From: Candidatus Nomurabacteria bacterium RIFCSPHIGHO2_12_FULL_42_19
Lineage (GTDB): Bacteria; Patescibacteriota; Minisyncoccia; Phycocordibacterales; UBA9973
Assembly (NCBI GenBank): GCA_001786955.1
Contig: MFUM01000004.1
Location: forward strand, 4,457-68,456
Length of the DNA: 64,000 nt
Reading direction: 5' to 3'
The notes beneath the pieces are model-generated. The model searched no databases. It was not told the DNA's origin and was given only the letters and a program-made list of their open reading frames with translations. The position numbers were made by a program, and so were the translations under genes. Shown one piece after another: positions 6,295 to 27,167 of the stretch. Numbering within the stretch: position 1 is the first letter of the stretch; every line of letters begins with the position of its first letter.

Positions 6295-7563
6295 TTAAGA
6301 AGTTTCCCCAAGAACCGTTCTTGTTAATTCTTCTAAAGAAACAATTTTTCCTTTCTCTTCAGCACGTTTTTTTAATTCTATTCCTTTTTCTTTTATACTC
6401 CGTAGAGATACAACCGCGCGAAATGGTATTCCAAGTAAATCCGCATCAGAAAACTTTTCTCCAGCCGATATGTTCATTCGGTCATCGAACAGGACTTCAA
6501 TACCCGCTTTCGATAAGCTTTTATAAACTCTATCAGCTTCTGCCGAAGTTGTTTCATCGTCCCCAAGCGCAAGCAAATGCACCTGAAATGGCGCTATAGA
6601 TTCCGGCCAAATTATACCTTTATCGTCGGCCAGAACCTCTACCACCGTGCCCAAGAGACGCCCCAGCCCTATGCCATAACAACCCATTAAAACAGGGTGT
6701 TTTTCCCCTTTTTCGTCTGTAAAGGATAAATCAAACGGCGCTGAGTATTTTGTTTTTAAGTCAAAAATATTCCCAACCTCAATAGCTCTTTGCTCGACTA
6801 ATTTTTCCTTTTTCAGATTAAGCTGGTTTAAAATCTCATCACTTAAAACCTCCTTATTCACGGCAACACCGCTCGCTTCATCAACATAGATAACATCTTC
6901 GCCCACGGGAGTAATGGTTTGAAATTCATGCGAATATTTTGCAAAAGTCCCGCCTGAAGCGAAAGTCATATAAGTCAGGTGCCCAATACCGACTCTGGAA
7001 AAAATAGTTTTATAAGCATCTTGCATTTTGCTGTAAAAATTTTCAAAGTCCCCAGCCGAAGTGTGAAAAGAATACATGTCTTTCATGATAAATTCCCTAC
7101 CACGCAACATTCCGGACTTGGCGCGAAGTTCCATTCTAAACTTATTTTGAATTTGATAAATATAGAGCGGAAAATCTTTATGCGAGGAAATATAATTTTT
7201 TAAAATTGGAACAACTATTTCTTCATGGGTGGGTCCCAGGGCAACTTCCCGACCGGAAGAATCTCCGACTTTGTATAAATCATCCATTGCCTGCCACCGG
7301 CCGGTTTTTTCCCAATTTTCTTTCGGCTGCATTGTGGACATCAGGACTTCCTGCCCACCGACTTTATCCATCTCTTCCCTGATTATATTTTCAATTTTCC
7401 TTAAAACCCGAAGCCCCAGCGGCAGGTAGCTATAAACTCCGGCCATTTCTTTGTGAACAAAACCCCCGCGAATAAGCAATTCGGCGTTTCTGGAAACTTC
7501 ATCCGCCGGACTCTCTTTTCTGGTCCTGGTAAAAAGCTTAGATTGTCTCATGCTGTTAATCAT
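6295..7563 (-). CDS. proS: Prolyl-tRNA synthetase (short form without an editing insertion)
   Basis: 422 aa. Class II motifs are present: LRGREFIMKDMYSF and GCYGIGLGRLLG. Confidence 0.9.
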   Translation of the reverse strand: MINSMRQSKLFTRTRKESPADEVSRNAELLIRGGFVHKEMAGVYSYLPLGLRVLRKIENIIREEMDKVGGQEVLMSTMQPKENWEKTGRWQAMDDLYKVGDSSGREVALGPTHEEIVVPILKNYISSHKDFPLYIYQIQNKFRMELRAKSGMLRGREFIMKDMYSFHTSAGDFENFYSKMQDAYKTIFSRVGIGHLTYMTFASGGTFAKYSHEFQTITPVGEDVIYVDEASGVAVNKEVLSDEILNQLNLKKEKLVEQRAIEVGNIFDLKTKYSAPFDLSFTDEKGEKHPVLMGCYGIGLGRLLGTVVEVLADDKGIIWPESIAPFQVHLLALGDDETTSAEADRVYKSLSKAGIEVLFDDRMNISAGEKFSDADLLGIPFRAVVSLRSIKEKGIELKKRAEEKGKIVSLEELTRTVLGETS

Positions 7564-12997: not shown

Positions 12998-14206
12998 CTA
13001 GTCAAAATAATTTTTCAGACGGGAAATTTTGTCGTGTTGGCGAAGTTTTTCGTGAACCTTGGCTTCAATTTGGCGAATACGCTCGCGGGTAACACCGAAT
13101 TCTTCCCCTACTCTTTCCAGCGTATGCTGAATGCCGTCAAGCAGGCCATAGCGCATTTCAAGAATTTTCCGCTCTTTCGGGTTAAGTTCATCCAAAACTT
13201 CGCGAATCTGGTCGGAGAGAATCCGGCGGGAAGATTCCTGGTCGGGACGCAAGATTTTATCGTCCGGAATAAAGTTTTCCAGGGTTGACTTGTCGTCATC
13301 GTCCCCCACCGGCTGTTCCAGGGATACAGTCTCCTGGCTGATATTTTCAATAACATGGATTTTTTCAACCGGGATGCCCATCTCGGTCGCAATTTCTTCG
13401 GCTAGCGGTTCCCGGCCTAAATCCTGGCTGAGCCTCCGGTGTGTCTGCTTATATTTGGAAATTGTTTCCACCATATGCACCGGTATGCGAATAGTTCTGC
13501 TCTGATCAGCCAAGGCACGGGTAATGGATTGGCGAATCCACCAAGTAGCGTAAGTAGAAAATTTATATCCTTTGGTCCAATCAAATTTTTCCACCGCCTT
13601 GAACAAGCCCAAATTCCCCTCCTGAATCAGGTCAAGCAGAGTTAAATTCGCGCTCCGGCCGACGTATTTTTTTGCGATTGAAACCACCAGACGCAAATTA
13701 GCGCGGGCCAATAAATTCTTTGCTTCCATATCCCCGCGCTCGATGCGCTTGGCAAGATCCTTCTCGTCACCCGCACGAATGAGAGGATATTGCCCTATTT
13801 CTTTCAGATACATTTGAATTGAATCATGCAAGCTTGATTTATTTAAATCTTTATCATTAAGGTCAAGGTCGAGATTAAGCAAATTTCCGCCTTCCAACAC
13901 ATCAATCGAGGCTGCAGAAAATTTCTCATAAAGCTCGTCTAAAAACAAAATATTGTTTTCGATGTCCGGAAAAGTTTTTAATATCTCGTCATAAGTGATA
14001 AACCCGCGCTTTCTTCCTTTTTCTATAAGAATATTTGCCAAATGAGCTAGGTTTTCGGCTTTCTTTTCAGCATAAGATAATTTTTTGGTTTTCGGGGCTT
14101 TTTTAACTATTTTACGGGGCTTTTTTTTGATTTTTTTTACCTTTTTGCTTTTTCTCTTTTTCGCAACTTTCGCTTTTTTATTTAATTTTCTGTTTTTCTT
14201 TTTCAT
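12998..14206 (-). CDS. rpoD: RNA polymerase sigma-70 factor RpoD with a poly-Lys N-terminus
   Basis: 402 aa. Region 2 reads [39 protein letters not shown]. Region 4 has an HTH. Confidence 0.95.
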
Positions 14207-14213
14207 TAATTTT

Positions 14214-15950
14214 TTATTTACGATTATTTTTAATATTCTCTTTTTTCTTATTCAATTCATTTATTTCCTTCAAAATCTTTTTACCTATTTCCTCATTAGA
14301 CGTTTGTCTTAATTCCAGCATTTTCTTGCTTAACTCTTCATTAATATTTTCTTCTTCAAGATTCAGAAACATCTCCGTTATGCTATTTTCTAATTTTTCG
14401 TTGTTCGTATAAAATACTTCTGCTTCGAATATAAGATCTTGTTTGACAACTTCATACTTTTTATAAACTTCTCCTAATTTTTCAAAAATTGCCTTAAAGT
14501 CTATAGCGGACGTTGGACGTCCGAGTTCCGGACGTCCAACGTCCGCTAAGCTTTGCTGCCAAAGAGCGATGCCCAAGAGTTTTCGCTCTATGTAATCTTT
14601 TCTGTACATCTTGGTTAAGCTCTCTCCCGCTTCCTTAATTTCTTCTTTTTCATATCTGAACTCTTGCTCAATTTTTTTTAAATCATCCTGTAATGCATTT
14701 TGAGATATGCCCGAAAGGTCGCTAATCTTTTTTATAAAATGCATTTTTTCTATCGAGCTTTCGAGCGCATTTACAAACGGTAATATTGTGCCTTTTATTT
14801 CCCTACCGGCCTTACGGGTGTCATTGCTATAATTTTTTAAAACTTTACTTAAAAGAAATTCTATAACGTGTTTAGAGTTTTTAATGGCTTCGCGCCAGGC
14901 ATCCGAACCCGTCTTCCCAATCAAATCCGCCGGATCGACACCATCAGGCATATCCACCACTTTTACATCCATCCCCAAAGAAAGAGCGATTTTGCCGGCA
15001 CGAATGGTCGCACTTGCCCCCGCCTTATCAGCATCAAAAGCAAGCACTAGATTCTCCGATAGGCGCCGCACCAGTCCTAAATTGCTTACAACATTTTCTT
15101 TTGAAACAGTAGAATCCGATAAAGCTGTGCCGGATGTCGCGATTGTGTTTTTATATCCCGCTTGATGCGATAATATCAAATCCATCTGACCTTCCACTAA
15201 AACAGAGAAGTTGTTCTTGCGGATGGAATCCTTAGCCTTATCAATTCCGTAAAGCACCGCATTTTTGCTGAAAATGGGCGTCTCGGGAGAGTTTAAATAT
15301 TTCGGTTCTCCTTCCCCTGTAATTCTTCCCGAAAACGCTATAACTCTTCCGCTTGAATCATTCATGGGAAACATAATTCTATTGCGAAAACGATCATAGT
15401 ATCCTTTCTCCGTTTTTTTAATTAGCCCGGCACGCTCTATTTCTAAATCACTAAAACCTGTCAACTTCAAGTGTTCATAAAGCGTCCGCCAGTCATCCTT
15501 CGCAAATCCAATACCAAAATCTTTGATTGTTTTTTCGCTCAGTCCTCGAGATTTTAAATATTCTATTTGTTTCGTTTCTAAGTTAGAAATAAAGAACTTC
15601 TCTGCTTTCTCCATCGCCCTGTATAATTTTTCTTTTTCGCTTTCCGCTTCTTTCATTTCTTTGCTGTAAGCCTTAAGAGGCACTCCGGCCCTATCTGCAA
15701 GAAGTTTTAATGCGCCTTTAAAATCAAGCCCTTCAAATTCCTCGACAAAGGTAAAAATATCACCCGACGCCCCGCAGCCAAAACAGTAATAAGTGCCGCG
15801 GTCGGGAGAAATGAAAAACGAAGGGGTTTTTTCATTGTGGAACGGGCATTTCGCCTTCAGGTTTACGCCTGTCTTCTCGAGCTTTATATAGGAAGAGACT
15901 ACTTCTTCAATCGATAGCCTCTCCTTAATTTTTTGTACGGGGGAATTCAT
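14214..15950 (-). CDS. dnaG: DNA primase
   Basis: 578 aa. CHC2 zinc finger [30 protein letters not shown], followed by a Toprim domain. It sits upstream of rpoD in the classic operon arrangement. Confidence 0.95.
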
Positions 15951-16044
15951 GAATCTTTATCTTTGGTTGTTTTTAAAATTTTCATAAATAAGCTTATAAA
16001 TTATAGATAATCTGGGTTTGATATACATGTTTCTAATAACTGCC

Positions 16045-16129
16045 TTGACACATATTTCATATTTGCTATACTTCGGTAGTAAATGGCTTCGGCCTCCGAG
16101 AAACCCCCGCAAGGGGGTTTCGTCTTTTA
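16045..16129 (+). ncRNA. Candidate small RNA: promoter TTGACA-16-TATACT, then a ~50-nt transcript ending in an intrinsic terminator (AAACCCCCGC-AA-GGGGGTTT plus a T-run)
   Basis: Near-consensus -35/-10 at 16045..16072. The terminator at 16101..16129 overlaps the stop codon of the convergent mazF-like gene. No + strand ORF follows it. Confidence 0.4.
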
Positions 16130-16513
16130 TGGAAGAATATTATGTATTTTCTTAATTATCGTACCAAAGTCATTCTCTTTTATCATACCAATTTTTCTTG
16201 AAAGCCTTCTACTATCCAAAAGTCTTATCTGTGATAAAATACCGGCATAAGTCTTTCCACTGAACTCATATTGGTGATAATAGTTATTGTTTTTCTTGGA
16301 GCTTGTTAATGGTATCGCTAAAAATATACTGTTATTGAATTTTCTAATAATAAGGATAGGTCTTTCAAATAATTCATTTTTCCCATCTTCTTCATAACCT
16401 ATATTTTTACCAAGTGAACAAAACCATATTTCTCTTTCGTGGAAAAAGACATTAGATTTCTTGGTTGATAAACTTTTTTTTAATTTATTCCAATCGTCAT
16501 ATTCTTTTTCCAT
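16127..16513 (-). CDS. mazF: MazF/PemK-family endoribonuclease toxin (type II TA toxin fold)
   Basis: FERPILIIRKFNNSIFLAIPLTS matches the MazF/EndoA RPVLVI...VIVxPITS core. SQIRLLDSRRLSRKIG matches the EQIRTIDKQRL region. The ATG is at 16513 (MEKEYDD...). The ORF track's upstream TTG at 16540 is less likely. The region is AT-rich. Confidence 0.7.
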   Translation of the reverse strand: MEKEYDDWNKLKKSLSTKKSNVFFHEREIWFCSLGKNIGYEEDGKNELFERPILIIRKFNNSIFLAIPLTSSKKNNNYYHQYEFSGKTYAGILSQIRLLDSRRLSRKIGMIKENDFGTIIKKIHNILP

Positions 16514-16520
16514 ATTTTTA

Positions 16521-19500
16521 TTATTCTTTTTTAGAAACAACTTCTCTATTTTTAAATCCGGTTCCGGCCGGAATCAGTCGTCCAATAATGACATTTTCTT
16601 TAAGCCCCCGCAGAAAATCCACTCCGCCTTTAATGGCATTTTCAATCAGGACGCGATTGGTGTTTTGGAATGAAGCGGCCGAGAGCCAGCTCTTGGTGCG
16701 GAGTGATACTTCGGTAATGCCGAGCACTACTGTTTCGGCTTTTGCTTCTTTTCCGTTTAAGTCGGCGACTCTTTGATTTTCTTCTATAAAGGCCGTATTC
16801 TCAACGATATCGCCGATTGAAAAATTAGTTTCACCTGCATCTTTTATTTTTCGCCGAGAAAACATCTGACGAATAATTATTTCCGTATGCTTTCTGGATA
16901 TTGAGGCACTTTGAAGCTCATAAACTTTGTTTATTTCAGTAATGATATATTCTTCAACCAATTCTTTATTGCCCAATTTAAACATTTCGGCAATATCGGC
17001 CGATCCATCGGTCAAAAGCTGTCCTTTTTTTACCTGCTCCCCTATTTTTACGATTGGCATTCTACGGAAAGCCACAGTGTATTCCATCTCGTTTTTCTTG
17101 CCGTCAACCTTGCTGTCAGATAGAATTTTAATTATTTTCTCTTTCCCGTCTTTAGCTTTGATTTCTATTATCTCGCCATCGGTCTCGGAAATAACTGCGG
17201 GATTTTTTGGAATCCTTCTTTCAAATATTTCCTCAACACGCGGCAGACCGGTCGTGATATCGGTTCCCGCCACGCCTCCGGCATGAAAGGTGCGAAGCGT
17301 AAGCTGCGTGCCGGGCTCACCGATAGCTTGAGCCGCGATAATGCCGACAGCCTCGCCTTGTTCCACCAGATGATTGCGCCCCAAATCAAGCCCGTAACAC
17401 ATCACGCAAAGACCGTGCACCGTTTTGCACGTAAGCGGAGAACGGACGAATACTTCCGCAAAACCCGCTCCTTCAATATTGTATGCTTCTTCTTTGGTAA
17501 TCAAAAATCCTTTCTTGTAGATGACCTTGCCGTTTTTGTCTTTAAGGTCGCCTGCGAGTATGCGTCCCCGGATGTTTTTTGAAAGCGGAATTTCAATTCC
17601 GGAAATATTTTCCCTGGTAACTATTTTTCCTTCTTTCGTGCCGCAATCCTCTTCGGTAATCACAACATCCTGCGCCACATCCACCAATCTTCGAGTCAAA
17701 TACCCGGCTTTCGCGGTGTTAAGCGCCGTGTCGGAAGCGCCTTTTCTGGCGCCATGAGTGATAACGAAATATTCAATCGGGGAAAGTCCTTCTTGATAGC
17801 AAGGAATAATCGGAAATTCCAGTGTCTTGCCCTGGTTATTTTGAATAAGACCAATCATGCCTATCATTTGTACTAGAGAACTCATCGTACCGCGGGCTCC
17901 GGAAGTAACCAAGTCAAAGGTAGAGCCATTCTGGTCAAGAGTGCCTGGCAGGACTTTTTCCAAATCTCTCTTGGTATGGGTCCAGATTTCAATAATTTTC
18001 TGGTATTTTTCTTCTTCGGAAAGCAAACCTTCGCTCCATTGGGCCAATACTGCTTCTTCCAGTTTTTTACCTTGTTCTATAATCTTCGGCTTTAAGGGAG
18101 AAACCTCCACATTGTCCAATCCCCAAGTAGTGCCGGAAACTGTCGAGTATTTGAAGCCGAATTCCTTGATTTTATCCAGAATAGGAGGAGTATTGTCCAC
18201 GCCGCAGTGTATGATAAGCTCGTCCAAGAGCGAGGATAATCTTTTTTGGTTCATTTCATCGTTCACGTAGGTAAAATCGTTAGGCAAAATGCTGTTGAAA
18301 AGAAGTTTCCCCACAGAGGTCTCAAAAATTCCCCCGTCAAACTTTCTATATTTGTGCGTATCGGTCGCGAGAACTTTTATTTTGGCGCGCAGAGACACAA
18401 CTCCGTAATCATGGGCGGTAATAGCGGTATTCGGACTGGAAAAATATTTTCCTTCTCCTTTTTCCCCATCGACAGATTTGGTCATCCAATAAGCCCCTAG
18501 GACAATATCCCGGCTTGAATGTACTATCGGGTCTCCATTTTGCGGCTTGAGCAGGTTTTTATTGGCTGCCATTAATTCTCTGGCTTCCCATTGCGCTTCC
18601 TCAAGAAGCGGAACATAGACAGCCATCTGGTCTCCATCGAAGTCAGCGTTGAAAGCCTGGCAAACCAGGGGATGCACCTGAATAGCGTTGCCTTCAATTA
18701 AAATCGGATTAAAAGCCTGAATACCCAAGCGATGCAGGGTCGGCGCGCGGTTGAGCAGCACATATTTTCCCTGAATGACTTCTTCCAACATCGCCCAGAC
18801 TTCTCCGGTCCTCTCTTCTATAAGCTTGTTGGCTCCGCGGATATTGAATGCAAGTTCCGCCTGTAGAATTTTTGAAATTACGAATGGCCGGAAAAGCTCG
18901 AGCGCCATATGCTTCGGCAATCCGCATTGGTTGAGCTTGAGCTGGGGACCGACGACGATAACCGAGCGTCCCGAATAGTCTACGCGCTTTCCCAGCAAAT
19001 TCTGGCGAAAGAGGCCTTGTTTTGACTTTAGATTATCCGACAGGGATTTCAAGGGGCGTTTTTGGGACTGACTCATCGCCGCCGAATCGTTCTGCTTGGC
19101 AATCGAGTTGTCAATCAATGCGTCAACGGCTTCCTGAATGATTCTTTTTTCGTTTCGTAAAATTACATCCGGGGCATTAATTTCTTTCAATTTTTTCAAG
19201 CGATTGTTTCTATTTATCACCCGGCGATAAAGATCGTTCAAATCGGAAGTTGCGTGCCTGCCCCCGTCGAGAGCCACCATCGGGCGAAGTACCGGCGGAA
19301 TAACCGGAATAACCGTTAGAAACATCCATTCCGGCCTGATTCCCGCGTAAGTCATCGCGCGGATAAGGGAGAGCCTTTTTTGCAGTTTTTCTTTTTCAGC
19401 CGCGCTCGCTTTTTCCGCCATCTTCTCCGTGAGATGTTTTAATTTGTTTAAATCAAGATTCTTAAAAATAGAATAAATCGCCTCGGCACCGATATTGGCT

Positions 19501-20129
19501 TCAAAACAAGTACCGTATTTCAAAGAGTAATGATGGAAGGAAATTTCGTTCAATACTTTACCTTCGTAAATTTCTCCGATTTCTTTCTTGGTGATGGAAA
19601 GCAAAGTTTTCAGCTTCTCGCGGATGTCGTCATCAGCCGAATTTTTTAATTTGGTTTTATATTCCTTGTCCAGACCCGACAGAATATTTTCTTTTTCCTC
19701 TTCGTGAACCTTGGTAATGATATATCCGGCAAAATAGATTACTTTTTCAAGATCGGAAACGGAAATATTCAGGAGAATGCTCATGCGGGAAGGCACTCCG
19801 CGCAGAAACCAAATATGCGAGACCGGAGTGGAGAGCTCAATGTGTCCCATGCGCTCCCGGCGCACGATAGAGCGCGTAACTTCGACTCCGCATTTTTCGC
19901 AAATGATGTCTTTGTAGCGAATTCGGCGGTATTTTCCGCAGTAACATTCATAATCTTTTTCCGGTCCGAAGATTTTCTCATCAAAAAGGCCTCCGCGCTC
20001 GGACCGTCCGGTGCGGTAATTTATTGTTTCCGGTTTGGTAACTTCCCCAAAAGACCATTCTTTTATCTGCTCCGGAGACGCGAGCCGGAGCGCGATGCGG
20101 TCAAATTCAGTTGTGTTGAGAGTTTTCAT
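16521..20129 (-). CDS. rpoC: DNA-directed RNA polymerase subunit beta'
   Basis: 1202 aa. Contains the zinc-binding N-terminus and [14 protein letters not shown]. Confidence 0.97.
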
Positions 20130-25145: not shown

Positions 25146-27167
25146 ATGAAGGAATCTAAAAACAAATTGCAAGGTATTATTTCCATCTCTTCAAAAGGCA
25201 CAGGCTATGTGGCAACCGGAGAAGTGAAGAATAAGGGCCAGGACCCGGAAATTGATTTCCAGCATTTAAATACCGCCCTGCACGGAGATATGGTAGAGAT
25301 AATCTTGCACCCGAAAGGTAAAAATCGCCAAACTGCTGAAGTTTCAAAAATAATATCGCGCGCAAAAATGAATTTCGCGGGAGTTCTGGAAGAAGAAAAC
25401 AAAATGTTCTTCCTGAAACCGGACGATACAAAAATGTATACAGATATTCTAATCCCAACCAAGTTTTTAAATAATGCGAAAGTTGGACAAAAGGTTTTTG
25501 TGGAAATAATTTCATGGAAAGATCCCCACAAGGCTCCGGAAGGAAAAGTAATAAAAGTTTTAGGCCGTCCGGGAGACAATGATACTGAAATGGAAAGTAT
25601 TGCGATAGAAAAAGGCTTTGATGCGAAACTTCCGCATAAAGTGGAAGAAGAAGCAAGGAAAATAAAGCAAAACGGCATTAAAGAAACCGACTATGCCGGA
25701 CGCAGAGATTTTCGCAAAACCCTGACCTTCACTATTGACCCCTCGGATGCGAAAGATTTTGATGATGCGATATCTTTCAGATTCCTCCCCTCCTTAAATA
25801 AGGAGGGGGCAGGGGGTGGTAATTCAAAAGACCACCCCGCCTCCGGCACCCCTCCTAAAAAAGGAGGGGAAGAGCAATATGAAGTCGGCATACACATCGC
25901 CGATGTCTCGCATTATGTAAAAATCGGCAGTGCTTTAGATGAAGAAGCGCGAGAAAGAGGAACTTCGGTATATTTGGTAGATAGGACGATACCAATGCTG
26001 CCGGAAACGCTTTCTAATGATTTGTGCTCTCTGGTGCCAAATAAAGACCGGCTTACTATGAGCGCAGTATTTATCATAGATAAAAATGCTCATGTAAAAA
26101 GCAAATGGTTCGGGCGCACGGTTATACATTCAAAAAAAAGATTTACTTACGAAGAAGCCGAGGAGTTAATAAAAAAATCCGCTGCGCCGTTCCATAAAGA
26201 ACTTTTTATCTTGAACAGCTTGGCAAAAAAATTAACCGGGGAAAGATTTGCGCAGGGCGCAATATCGCTTGACCAGGAAGAAGTAAAATTTGTTTTGGAT
26301 AAAAATGGAGTGCCGTTGAAAGTAATAAAAAAAGAGCGCGGCGATTCAAACAGGCTGATTGAGGAATTTATGCTCCTGGCAAATAAAAAAGTGGCGGAGG
26401 TCTTGTCTCCAAAAAATATAAAGGGTGTGAAAGATGAAGGCGTATCCATATACCGAGTGCACGATCTGCCGAGTAAGGAAAAAATGGCCGATCTGGCGTT
26501 TTTTTTGCGAAGTTTGGGACATAGAGTCTCCTTGCAGAACGGCCTTATCCCGACATATGAAATAAATAAGCTTCTAGAGAGTTTGGCCGGCAAAAATGAA
26601 GAAGATACGGTGCATCGCGCAGTTATCCGTTCTATGGCTAAAGCGCTTTATTCCACCAAAAATATCGGGCATTACGGTCTGGCTTTTCAATATTATACTC
26701 ACTTCACTTCCCCGATTAGGCGCTATCCGGACATCATGGTGCACAGACTTCTGGAAAAATTCCTCTCTGGCAAAAAAATAAAAAAGGAGGATTTAAAAGA
26801 GAAATTAATCGAATATGAAAAAATCGCCCTAAATGCATCCGAACAGGAAAAACGCGCCGCAGATGCCGAACGAGCTTCCATAAAATATAAACAAGTGGAA
26901 TATATGTCCAGATATCTGGGAAAAAGCTTCGACGGGGTAATCAGCGGGATAACCGAGTGGGGCATGTATGTGGAAGAACTAGAGACAAAATGCGAAGGTT
27001 TGGTGCGGGTACGTGATATGAATGACGATTTTTATATTTTCAATGAAAAAAAATTGGAATTAACCGGACAAAAAAAGAAAAAAAAGTACAGGCTCGGCGG
27101 CCGTGTCAAAATAAAAGTAAAATCGGTTGATTTGGAGAGAAAAACGATAGATTATATATTGACATGA
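25146..27167 (+). CDS. rnr: Ribonuclease R (RNB family 3'-5' exoribonuclease with a C-terminal S1 domain)
   Basis: RNB motifs DPSDAKDFDDAISF and HIADVSHYV, plus HYGLAFQYYTHFTSPIRRYPD. Start taken at 25146 (MKESKN...) because the ORF track's 24954 overlaps rpsP. It carries an 88-nt GC-rich in-frame element. Confidence 0.9.
   Translation: MKESKNKLQGIISISSKGTGYVATGEVKNKGQDPEIDFQHLNTALHGDMVEIILHPKGKNRQTAEVSKIISRAKMNFAGVLEEENKMFFLKPDDTKMYTDILIPTKFLNNAKVGQKVFVEIISWKDPHKAPEGKVIKVLGRPGDNDTEMESIAIEKGFDAKLPHKVEEEARKIKQNGIKETDYAGRRDFRKTLTFTIDPSDAKDFDDAISFRFLPSLNKEGAGGGNSKDHPASGTPPKKGGEEQYEVGIHIADVSHYVKIGSALDEEARERGTSVYLVDRTIPMLPETLSNDLCSLVPNKDRLTMSAVFIIDKNAHVKSKWFGRTVIHSKKRFTYEEAEELIKKSAAPFHKELFILNSLAKKLTGERFAQGAISLDQEEVKFVLDKNGVPLKVIKKERGDSNRLIEEFMLLANKKVAEVLSPKNIKGVKDEGVSIYRVHDLPSKEKMADLAFFLRSLGHRVSLQNGLIPTYEINKLLESLAGKNEEDTVHRAVIRSMAKALYSTKNIGHYGLAFQYYTHFTSPIRRYPDIMVHRLLEKFLSGKKIKKEDLKEKLIEYEKIALNASEQEKRAADAERASIKYKQVEYMSRYLGKSFDGVISGITEWGMYVEELETKCEGLVRVRDMNDDFYIFNEKKLELTGQKKKKKYRLGGRVKIKVKSVDLERKTIDYILT

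Follow-up and report, generated by a model that had tools for sequence, protein, structure and literature searches.

How a toxin of the MazF/PemK family is kept in check when its gene lies directly behind rpoC with no antitoxin gene beside it is the question raised by a locus in Candidatus Nomurabacteria bacterium RIFCSPHIGHO2_12_FULL_42_19. The locus lies in a 64,000-nt stretch of contig MFUM01000004.1 (positions 4,457 to 68,456; hereafter the window, whose own numbering is used below), for which a first-pass annotation had described a solitary MazF-like ribonuclease gene embedded in the RNA polymerase operon and had suggested regulation either in trans or by a convergent small transcript. 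Comparison with related loci shows that a predicted RNA gene, with promoter, covarying hairpins and terminator, is conserved on the opposite strand right after the toxin gene and is tightly coupled to it. This RNA is very probably a functional partner of the toxin and, with somewhat less assurance, can be regarded as its likely antitoxin. Tentatively, we read the locus as a MazF-family endoribonuclease toxin paired with a constitutive, convergent, structured small RNA (sRNA) antitoxin of ~50 nt, which the toxin would bind directly.

The gene behind rpoC encodes a MazF/PemK-family protein

The toxin open reading frame (ORF) occupies 16127..16513 on the minus strand, from an ATG at 16513 to a stop codon at 16127, and encodes 128 aa. 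A TTG-extended ORF of 137 aa finds no support, as all homologues begin at the MEKEYD start. The family assignment made in the first-pass annotation held up: the protein matches Pfam PF02452 (PemK_toxin) over residues 27–126 (E = 3.1e-08; 34.2 bits against a cut-off of 23.1) and PHROG 9567, "MazF-like growth inhibitor", over its full length (E = 1.4e-19). An NCBIfam search of the protein gave no match. A sequence search of the PDB returned nothing relevant, and no MazF, and a fold search was needed to reach this family. The AlphaFold2 model (predicted local distance difference test, 82.8) is a MazF SH3-like barrel preceded by an extra N-terminal helix (residues 3–16); the top 50 Foldseek matches are all MazF/MoxT/YdcE structures (e.g., 4mzp_E, E = 1.6e-6; 5ck9_A, template modelling score 0.82 on the target), and PDB 4mdx is among the fold matches.

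MazF enzymes have a catalytic Arg and a catalytic Thr or Ser, R25/T48 in Bacillus subtilis MazF and R29/T52 in Escherichia coli MazF. An hhalign comparison with the B. subtilis protein gave 94% probability and placed R51 of the window protein on R25 and T70 on T48. R51–P52 and S94–Q95, which together with T70 mark the MazF core, are invariant among 24 diverse relatives, as are W8 and K12 of the extra helix. The dN/dS ratio among close relatives is 0.04–0.1 with synonymous sites near saturation, which indicates that the gene is kept by selection. We regard it as a genuine MazF/PemK-family homologue, for which nuclease activity, growth inhibition and toxicity are predicted. Its subfamily comprises 1378 clusters at 50% identity (E ≤ 1e-10), the top 150 of which all cover the N-terminal helix, and has at least 583 matches in species-representative genomes.

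No protein antitoxin accompanies the toxin gene

An adjacent protein antitoxin, the defining feature of type II MazEF/PemIK systems, is absent from the window locus. The first-pass annotation had seen no antitoxin-sized ORF upstream or downstream, and the ORF list contains none. A small antitoxin in the 3′ end of rpoC, which it had named as a possible oversight, was looked for as well: over the last ~400 nt of rpoC, the only minus-strand ORFs of at least 25 aa are rpoC and the TTG-extended version of the toxin gene. The sole ORF in the 176-nt gap to dnaG is a 51-aa TTG ORF that runs through the hairpin described below. Queries with MazE, PemI and EndoAI found no similarity within the 64-kb window, which is a weak test, and the window contains no toxin paralogues.

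The survey of neighbouring genes used 80 loci taken from species-representative genomes, out of at least 583 relatives. No protein neighbour was conserved across 75 related loci, whose flanking proteins are heterogeneous; no neighbour cluster exceeded 5 of ~75 loci, a size reached by upstream rpoC (in one Nomurabacteria subclade) and by a downstream Cys-rich protein of 574 aa. With neither an ORF nor a conserved neighbour to be found, we rejected a protein antitoxin on either side of the toxin gene or within the 3′ end of rpoC. Loss of an antitoxin partner from the window was rejected too: the 210-aa and 574-aa genes of relatives vary between loci, match nothing in PADLOC and have no remnant in the window, which marks them as cargo rather than antitoxin. 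As a separate observation, on the Nitratiruptor plasmid pNitYY0814_PLS (locus L095, 1955–2143) a 62-aa protein is encoded after the toxin and its sRNA gene, upstream of a rep gene; it looks ribbon-helix-helix-like by eye and may serve that lineage either in copy control, as a repressor, or as a protein antitoxin.

A predicted convergent sRNA gene ends at the toxin stop codon

The convergent small transcript that the annotation had placed at 16045..16129 was borne out as a sequence feature, the plus strand carrying both a promoter and a terminator there. The promoter (16045..16072, scoring 11/12 in the scan) consists of a -35 element TTGACA (16045–16050), a 16-nt spacer and a TG-extended -10 element TATACT (16067–16072). 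The predicted ~50-nt sRNA (16078..16129), a candidate RNA antitoxin, is delimited by covariance model, fold energy and promoter geometry, the last of which gives its transcription start. In order, it comprises the leader (G)UAAAU; hairpin 2 (16085..16094), GGC-UUCG-GCC with a cUUCGg tetraloop; the linker UCCGA; and hairpin 1 (16100..16121), GAAACCCCC-GCAA-GGGGGUUUC with a GNRA loop, which is followed by the U-tract GUCUUUUA and was recognized by the terminator scan as an intrinsic terminator. The U-tract overlaps the toxin stop codon (16127–16129).

The sRNA has a fold energy of −23.4 kcal/mol (z = −2.7). A first covariance model, built on one subtype, missed the window; a second (R2), from a broader alignment, matches 16078–16124 on the plus strand (24.6 bits, E = 0.01 in 660 kb). 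This is its only match in the window, where the core 20-mer of the sRNA is also unique. A known RNA family is ruled out by Rfam 15, which gave nothing at gathering score in the window region (best E 3.3) and no match at the sRNA position in seven other loci. Tandem repeats like those of ToxI are ruled out by Tandem Repeats Finder, which found no repeats in 15500–17200; the RNA is single-copy, downstream of the toxin and convergent. Conservation over the first ~70 nt past the toxin stop exceeds that of the coding sequence, with compensatory change already visible in a hairpin. From these sequence features we infer that a convergent small RNA is transcribed from the plus strand.

The sRNA gene is conserved and covaries across phyla

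The layout of promoter, leader, hairpin 2, linker and hairpin 1, on the opposite strand right after the toxin stop, recurs in 78 of 81 distinct loci, with 18 of the locus parses done by eye. These loci span Patescibacteria, Saccharibacteria, Alpha- and Gammaproteobacteria, a Saprospiraceae metagenome-assembled genome and a Nitratiruptor (Campylobacterota) plasmid. The description of the toxin as solitary therefore does not stand: the family toxin is almost always followed by a convergent structured sRNA gene, and the two form a two-gene module. Of the two regulators that had been suggested, the convergent small transcript is the one strongly backed by comparative data, as a sequence feature.

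The best promoter score per locus has a mean, over the 81 loci, of 10.1/12 on the antisense strand, compared with 7.6 on the toxin strand and 7.9 in shuffled sequence. The hexamers are mostly TTGACA or TTGACT with TATACT or TATAAT, and the distance from the -10 element to hairpin 2 is exactly 12 nt in 46 of 60 loci. Hairpin 1 takes 56 distinct stems in 78 loci, with canonical pairs in 603 of 606 cells and a GNRA loop in 58 of the 78; in hairpin 2 the loop is UUCG in 54 of 78 loci and the stem has standard pairs throughout (261/261 cells), with GC/CG/UA swaps. A gap-free subset of 21 sequences shows 100% pairing and double-sided changes in 6 of 10 pairs, matched by 0 of 500 shuffles, and in slid controls of this subset only 33–53% of cells pair. 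A 71-sequence alignment, which was fitted to the model, has 99.7% of cells paired, 9 of 10 pairs covarying and 144 compensatory cells, and the family-wide covariation score is 0.56 versus at most 0.10 in slid controls. The orientation of the sRNA is fixed because UUCG and GNRA loops exist on the antisense strand only, along with the promoter and terminator. The sequence of the leader and hairpin 2 is conserved across phyla and hairpin 1 varies freely; the RNA region is identical or nearly so among lineages whose toxin synonymous sites are saturated.

The RNA gene is coupled to the toxin gene and outlasts it

The covariance models match almost exclusively beside the toxin. In the reverse test, the 20-mer AAATGGCTTCGGCCTCCGAG was located at 54 sites in a metagenome collection, and at 47 of them a convergent MazF-like gene ends 30–68 nt away; three of the remaining sites are cut by contig ends, and four have no detectable toxin despite sufficient flanks. 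Several loci retain an intact RNA gene beside a broken toxin (L101, L129, L140, L106, L120, L119, L128 and L135). On three contigs, a truncated toxin remnant of residues 86–128 only lies directly after a pyrH-like gene, and other pseudogenes beside an intact sRNA have the catalytic RP replaced together with in-frame stops, or a frameshift. Extra or orphan sRNA genes, in tandem or alone, each have their own promoter and terminator. As we read these loci, retention of the RNA while the toxin decays is the usual pattern of toxin–antitoxin (TA) decay.

Copies with no adjacent toxin include those at L079 (4489–4531, minus strand), L073 (3672–3714, minus strand), L123, L135 (two sites) and L136; they carry a promoter with TTGACA and a -10 element, and the L073 copy is then followed by a separate canonical terminator. 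Carriage by phages was considered and rejected: a loose RNA pattern gave five IMG/VR matches, all attributable to chance and devoid of promoter, hairpins and toxin.

Two architectures of the module

Loci of the window subtype have the linker UCCGA and use hairpin 1 to end the sRNA. The type 2/3 subtype, in which the linker is CGA or CU, is commoner; it has a third hairpin, with U-runs in both directions, that covers the last ~7 toxin codons and the stop. This hairpin terminates the sRNA in 25 of 26 loci. In 18 of 27 it should end the toxin mRNA as well, ahead of hairpins 1 and 2, so that the two transcripts overlap only in the shared terminator and the mRNA contains no complement of the conserved 5′ domain of the sRNA. 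It looks like a bidirectional terminator shared by toxin mRNA and sRNA. In L021, L024 and L085, for example, A-runs and T-runs flank a hairpin made of the C-terminal toxin codons and the stop, within the final ~30 nt of the ORF.

How the RNA may restrain the toxin

We infer both that the RNA neutralises the toxin and how it might do so. Toxin output would be low: its gene, which has no Shine-Dalgarno sequence, would be transcribed either by polymerases reading through from rpoC or from a weak promoter positioned to give a leaderless mRNA. The sRNA would be produced in excess from its near-consensus sigma-70 promoter. The single-stranded (U)ACAAAU/GUAAAU leader and the cUUCGg hairpin would bind the toxin and block its RNA groove, with the leader acting as a pseudo-substrate, and the subfamily-specific N-terminal helix may contact the sRNA hairpin. 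The toxin would be set free if the locus were lost or sRNA levels fell.

If the RNA is an antitoxin, neutralisation by direct binding appears a little more probable than antisense action. Direct, type III-like neutralisation is slightly favoured over 3′-antisense control because the leader and hairpin 2 are conserved across phyla and lie outside the mRNA overlap in many loci, because the sRNA has no specific pairing to the toxin translation start, and because the single-stranded motifs bound by MazF resemble the leader and the subfamily has its own conserved N-terminal helix. Short single-stranded motifs such as UACAU or ACA are known RNA ligands of MazF proteins. The predicted duplex between sRNA and toxin translation start has an energy of −12.6 kcal/mol for cognate and −11.9 kcal/mol for non-cognate pairs (p = 0.31); the two are indistinguishable, and pairing in trans between the sRNA and the ribosome-binding region of the toxin was rejected.

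Several observations weigh against an RNA antitoxin that is bound directly. In place of the tandem, co-directional repeats that known ToxIN-type systems have, there is one convergent copy of the RNA; the window leader GUAAAU differs from the ACAAAU of most family members; and the alignment behind the family-wide covariation was, as stated, fitted to the model. The leader motif is not depleted in toxin ORFs, in a self-avoidance test that could have given a clue to cleavage specificity and was uninformative. A sense-strand terminator between the toxin stop and the sRNA promoter was found in 0 of 21 window-subtype loci, so toxin transcripts of this subtype probably read through the RNA region; such a transcript would contain the complement of the entire sRNA, a geometry in keeping with an antisense (type I-like) mechanism.

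An explanation of the latter kind is the best of the alternatives. The sRNA would act only as a cis-antisense RNA to the 3′ end or 3′ untranslated region of the toxin transcript, with no RNA–protein contact, and the outcome would be RNase III cleavage, mRNA destabilisation, or interference from a strong convergent promoter colliding with read-through from rpoC. The convergent geometry, the overlap of the sRNA 3′ end with the toxin stop codon, the type 2/3 terminator hairpin over the last ~7 toxin codons and the lack of sense-strand terminators in the window subtype all fit this scheme, and 3′-overlapping antisense antitoxins such as txpA/RatA and bsrG/SR4 exist. Pure cis-antisense action, however, needs no conservation of primary sequence, and the leader and UUCG hairpin are conserved across phyla; the toxin mRNA should end before these elements in 18 of 27 type 2/3 loci; orphan sRNA genes persist with no toxin transcript as pairing target; and the usual type I toxins are small membrane peptides. 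We hold this scheme to be on the unlikely side, though a serious contender.

A possible precedent for antisense control is the cjrA/cjpT pair of Campylobacter jejuni, whose toxin CjpT is reportedly a protein. The pVir plasmid encodes a PemK-like protein of 134 aa (WP_011117588.1; L094; NC_008770.1, 30634–31038) that is 34% identical to the window protein over residues 4–116, N-terminal extension included; a hairpin follows its stop codon, and a convergent promoter TTGATT-17-TATAAT with a TG extension (10/12) lies ~90 nt past it. This protein may be CjpT; were it so, the family would already include a member whose RNA antitoxin is backed by experiment. CjrA is reported to be the antisense RNA antitoxin of a type I TA system, from C. 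jejuni strain 81-176 (PMC10470494), and has been placed on pVir (PMC7826846). In contrast to the window module, the sequence downstream of the pVir gene has no covariance model match and no ACAAAU–UUCG signature. The northern-validated pVir sRNA CJpv2 maps elsewhere (25244–25412 of the IA3902 pVir) and not beside the PemK-like gene.

Improbable, in our judgement, is that protein and RNA form no TA pair at all. The MazF-like protein might instead be an RNA-binding or processing partner of the sRNA in a small ribonucleoprotein, or the sRNA might be its main substrate, in a regulatory or defensive role, such as guarding the downstream cargo slot, rather than in addiction. Such a role would accommodate the tight protein–RNA coupling, the extra conserved N-terminal helix that canonical MazF lacks, the stable inheritance after rpoC in a Nomurabacteria subclade under strong purifying selection, and the variable cargo genes downstream of the module in relatives. 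It sits poorly with the conservation of the residues aligned to the catalytic Arg and Thr of MazF, and with the repeated pseudogenisation of the toxin with the RNA retained, which resembles TA decay; PADLOC gives no match, moreover, and the cargo is missing in both the window and L014.

There is a slim chance that the toxin is truly solitary and that the hairpins are a mere terminator or insulator beside a fortuitous promoter. Control would then come from a MazE-like protein encoded elsewhere, from the protein's own N-terminal acidic-Trp helix acting as an inhibitor, or from very low expression. The motif D-x-W-N-x-x-K-K in that helix may loosely resemble the Trp-containing C-terminal tail of MazE; our inspection covered 64 kb of the genome, and the toxin gene has no Shine-Dalgarno sequence. 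A terminator, on the other hand, needs no near-consensus promoter in fixed phase, no conserved leader and no second, UUCG hairpin; orphan copies retain the promoter and both hairpins; a search of the window gave no MazE-like sequence; and the 75 loci share no conserved protein partner.

Finally, a leaderless peptide antitoxin encoded on the antisense strand from the ATG in AAATGG (MASASEK…, a 55-aa ORF at 16083–16250 in the window) is effectively refuted: of 60 loci, 47 have the ATG where the 5′ end is predicted, but 13 have a codon that is no start (ACG, ATT or another); the ORFs vary in length from 2 to 74 aa, and those of the closest relatives (L001, L015 and L017) stop after 9–20 codons; the ORF would cross the intrinsic terminator; and the compensatory stem changes and the stem-length changes that are not multiples of three are incompatible with a conserved peptide.

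Comparison with known toxin–antitoxin systems

Read as a MazF-family toxin with a directly bound RNA antitoxin, the module shares features with three types of TA system. With the type II MazEF/PemIK (Kid–Kis) systems it has in common Pfam PF02452, the SH3-like barrel and the aligned catalytic Arg and Thr. It differs from them in that the window and the 75 related loci have no adjacent or conserved antitoxin gene of the MazE/PemI/AbrB or ribbon-helix-helix type, in the extra N-terminal helix of the window toxin, and in the conserved convergent sRNA gene that stands in the antitoxin's place.

Like the type III systems ToxIN, CptIN, TenpIN and AbiQ–antiQ, it combines a predicted endoribonuclease of the Kid/MazF fold class with a structured RNA encoded at the locus and has no protein antitoxin. 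The antitoxins of ToxN-type systems are tandem direct repeats that lie upstream on the same strand, are separated from the toxin gene by a terminator and are processed by the toxin, whereas the window RNA is present once, downstream of the toxin gene and convergent with it, and has a promoter and terminator of its own. The window toxin is a PemK/MazF member rather than a ToxN, CptN or TenpN protein, as judged from PF02452 being its sole Pfam match and from the lack of a PADLOC match. Another non-ToxN toxin with an RNA antitoxin, the deaminase of AvcID, is classed as type III (PMC10511110).

The type I systems txpA/RatA and bsrG/SR4 of B. subtilis, and SymE/SymR and RalR/RalA, whose toxins are enzymes, likewise have a cis-encoded sRNA with a strong promoter and stable hairpins, and in the 3′-overlapping ones the sRNA is transcribed toward the toxin gene and overlaps its 3′ end, as predicted for the window locus. 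Type I toxins, however, are usually hydrophobic peptides of <60 aa, in contrast to a 128-aa soluble, predicted RNase of the MazF fold. The overlap with the ORF here is the stop codon only (window type) or ~30 nt (type 2/3), and the conserved 5′ domain lies outside it.

A full-text literature search found no paper describing a MazF/PemK toxin with an RNA antitoxin, nor this RNA. MazF proteins are textbook type II toxins, and to our knowledge every characterised one has a protein antitoxin. The widespread MazF–sRNA module and its structured sRNA family, new and absent from Rfam, are apparently undescribed. It is possible, if doubtful, that the module is the first bona fide MazF/PemK class with a dedicated, single-copy, independently transcribed, structured sRNA antitoxin that binds the protein. 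If so, it would be a new RNA-antitoxin architecture with >1000 protein clusters at 50% identity, concentrated in Patescibacteria (the Candidate Phyla Radiation), and would explain many "orphan" MazF genes that annotation pipelines label type II. A MazF subfamily that uses an sRNA would also blur the boundary between types I, II and III and imply that antitoxin type can be swapped on one toxin scaffold. For Patescibacteria, whose genomes are tiny and in which few regulatory RNAs are known, the module adds a compact and clearly covarying sRNA class, and the pair of a ~50-nt RNA and a 128-aa protein is small enough for direct biochemical and structural tests.

Expression and genomic setting

In the window, the toxin gene follows rpoC (16521..20129, minus strand; identified from the ORF list and from rpoC Pfam domains in syntenic loci). 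The first-pass annotation was right that it starts 7 nt past the rpoC stop, which ends at 16521, on the same strand, which it had left unnamed; it was also right about the 176 nt between the toxin end and dnaG, whose ATG is at 15950 and which is followed by rpoD. The 7-nt spacer (16514..16520, minus strand) has no Shine-Dalgarno sequence, and a weak -10-like AATAAT (9/12 in the promoter scan) ends at 16520, upstream of the toxin ATG. Read-through transcription is likely supplied by rpoC, and the window gene probably rides on rpoBC transcription; the short gap and lack of a Shine-Dalgarno sequence make co-transcription with rpoBC plausible. Across the 5′ regions of 56 family loci (16514–16548 in the window), a Shine-Dalgarno-like 4-mer precedes only 7 toxin genes, and many have a -10-like hexamer ~7 nt ahead of the ATG. 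Scarce Shine-Dalgarno sequences and frequent -10-like hexamers near the ATG suggest leaderless or coupled, low-level translation. The module often begins 2–40 nt past the stop of a co-oriented upstream gene.

The rpoC position is limited to one Nomurabacteria subclade, and elsewhere the module follows unrelated genes; placement after rpoC is incidental and no property of the module. A strong convergent promoter after rpoC and before dnaG–rpoD may nonetheless affect read-through in a core macromolecular-synthesis operon. The locus is more AT-rich than its flanks, as had been noted, with a GC content of 0.29–0.33 over 16050–16650 versus 0.40–0.52 in rpoC. Farther along, GC falls to 0.24–0.27 over 13950–14400, at the junction between the codons for the Lys-rich RpoD N-terminus and those for the Lys/Glu-rich DnaG C-terminus.

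Between the sRNA promoter and dnaG lies a spacer (15951..16044, minus strand) that holds no gene in the window and variable cargo in relatives, as judged from tblastn and the relatives' contexts. In the closest relatives, this slot is filled by a 210-aa ART-PolyVal-like gene, a 574-aa Cys-rich gene, a 184-aa gene or nothing; tblastn found no trace of the 210-aa or 574-aa genes in the window, and the slot of L014 is empty as well. Cargo occurs at L001 (6463–7095), L007 (6464–8188), L010, L015, L017, L081 and L016, and comprises a 210-aa ART-PolyVal-like ADP-ribosyltransferase (37 bits), a Cys-rich protein of 574–591 aa with no Pfam domain, and a 184-aa protein. PADLOC gave no match for the cargo genes or the module. 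The cargo gene ATG overlaps the sRNA -35 element (ATGTCAA).

In two Nomurabacteria assemblies (L002 and L006, 7092–8722), dnaG is called as two ORFs of ~275–302 aa and 243 aa, and in other assemblies as a single gene of 571–577 aa; the split call is either a frameshift or assembly artefact or a split gene. On a Kaiserbacteria contig (L043), a LOOT RNA (Rfam RF03000, 75 bits) lies at 6577–6696 on the plus strand, ~2 kb from the module.

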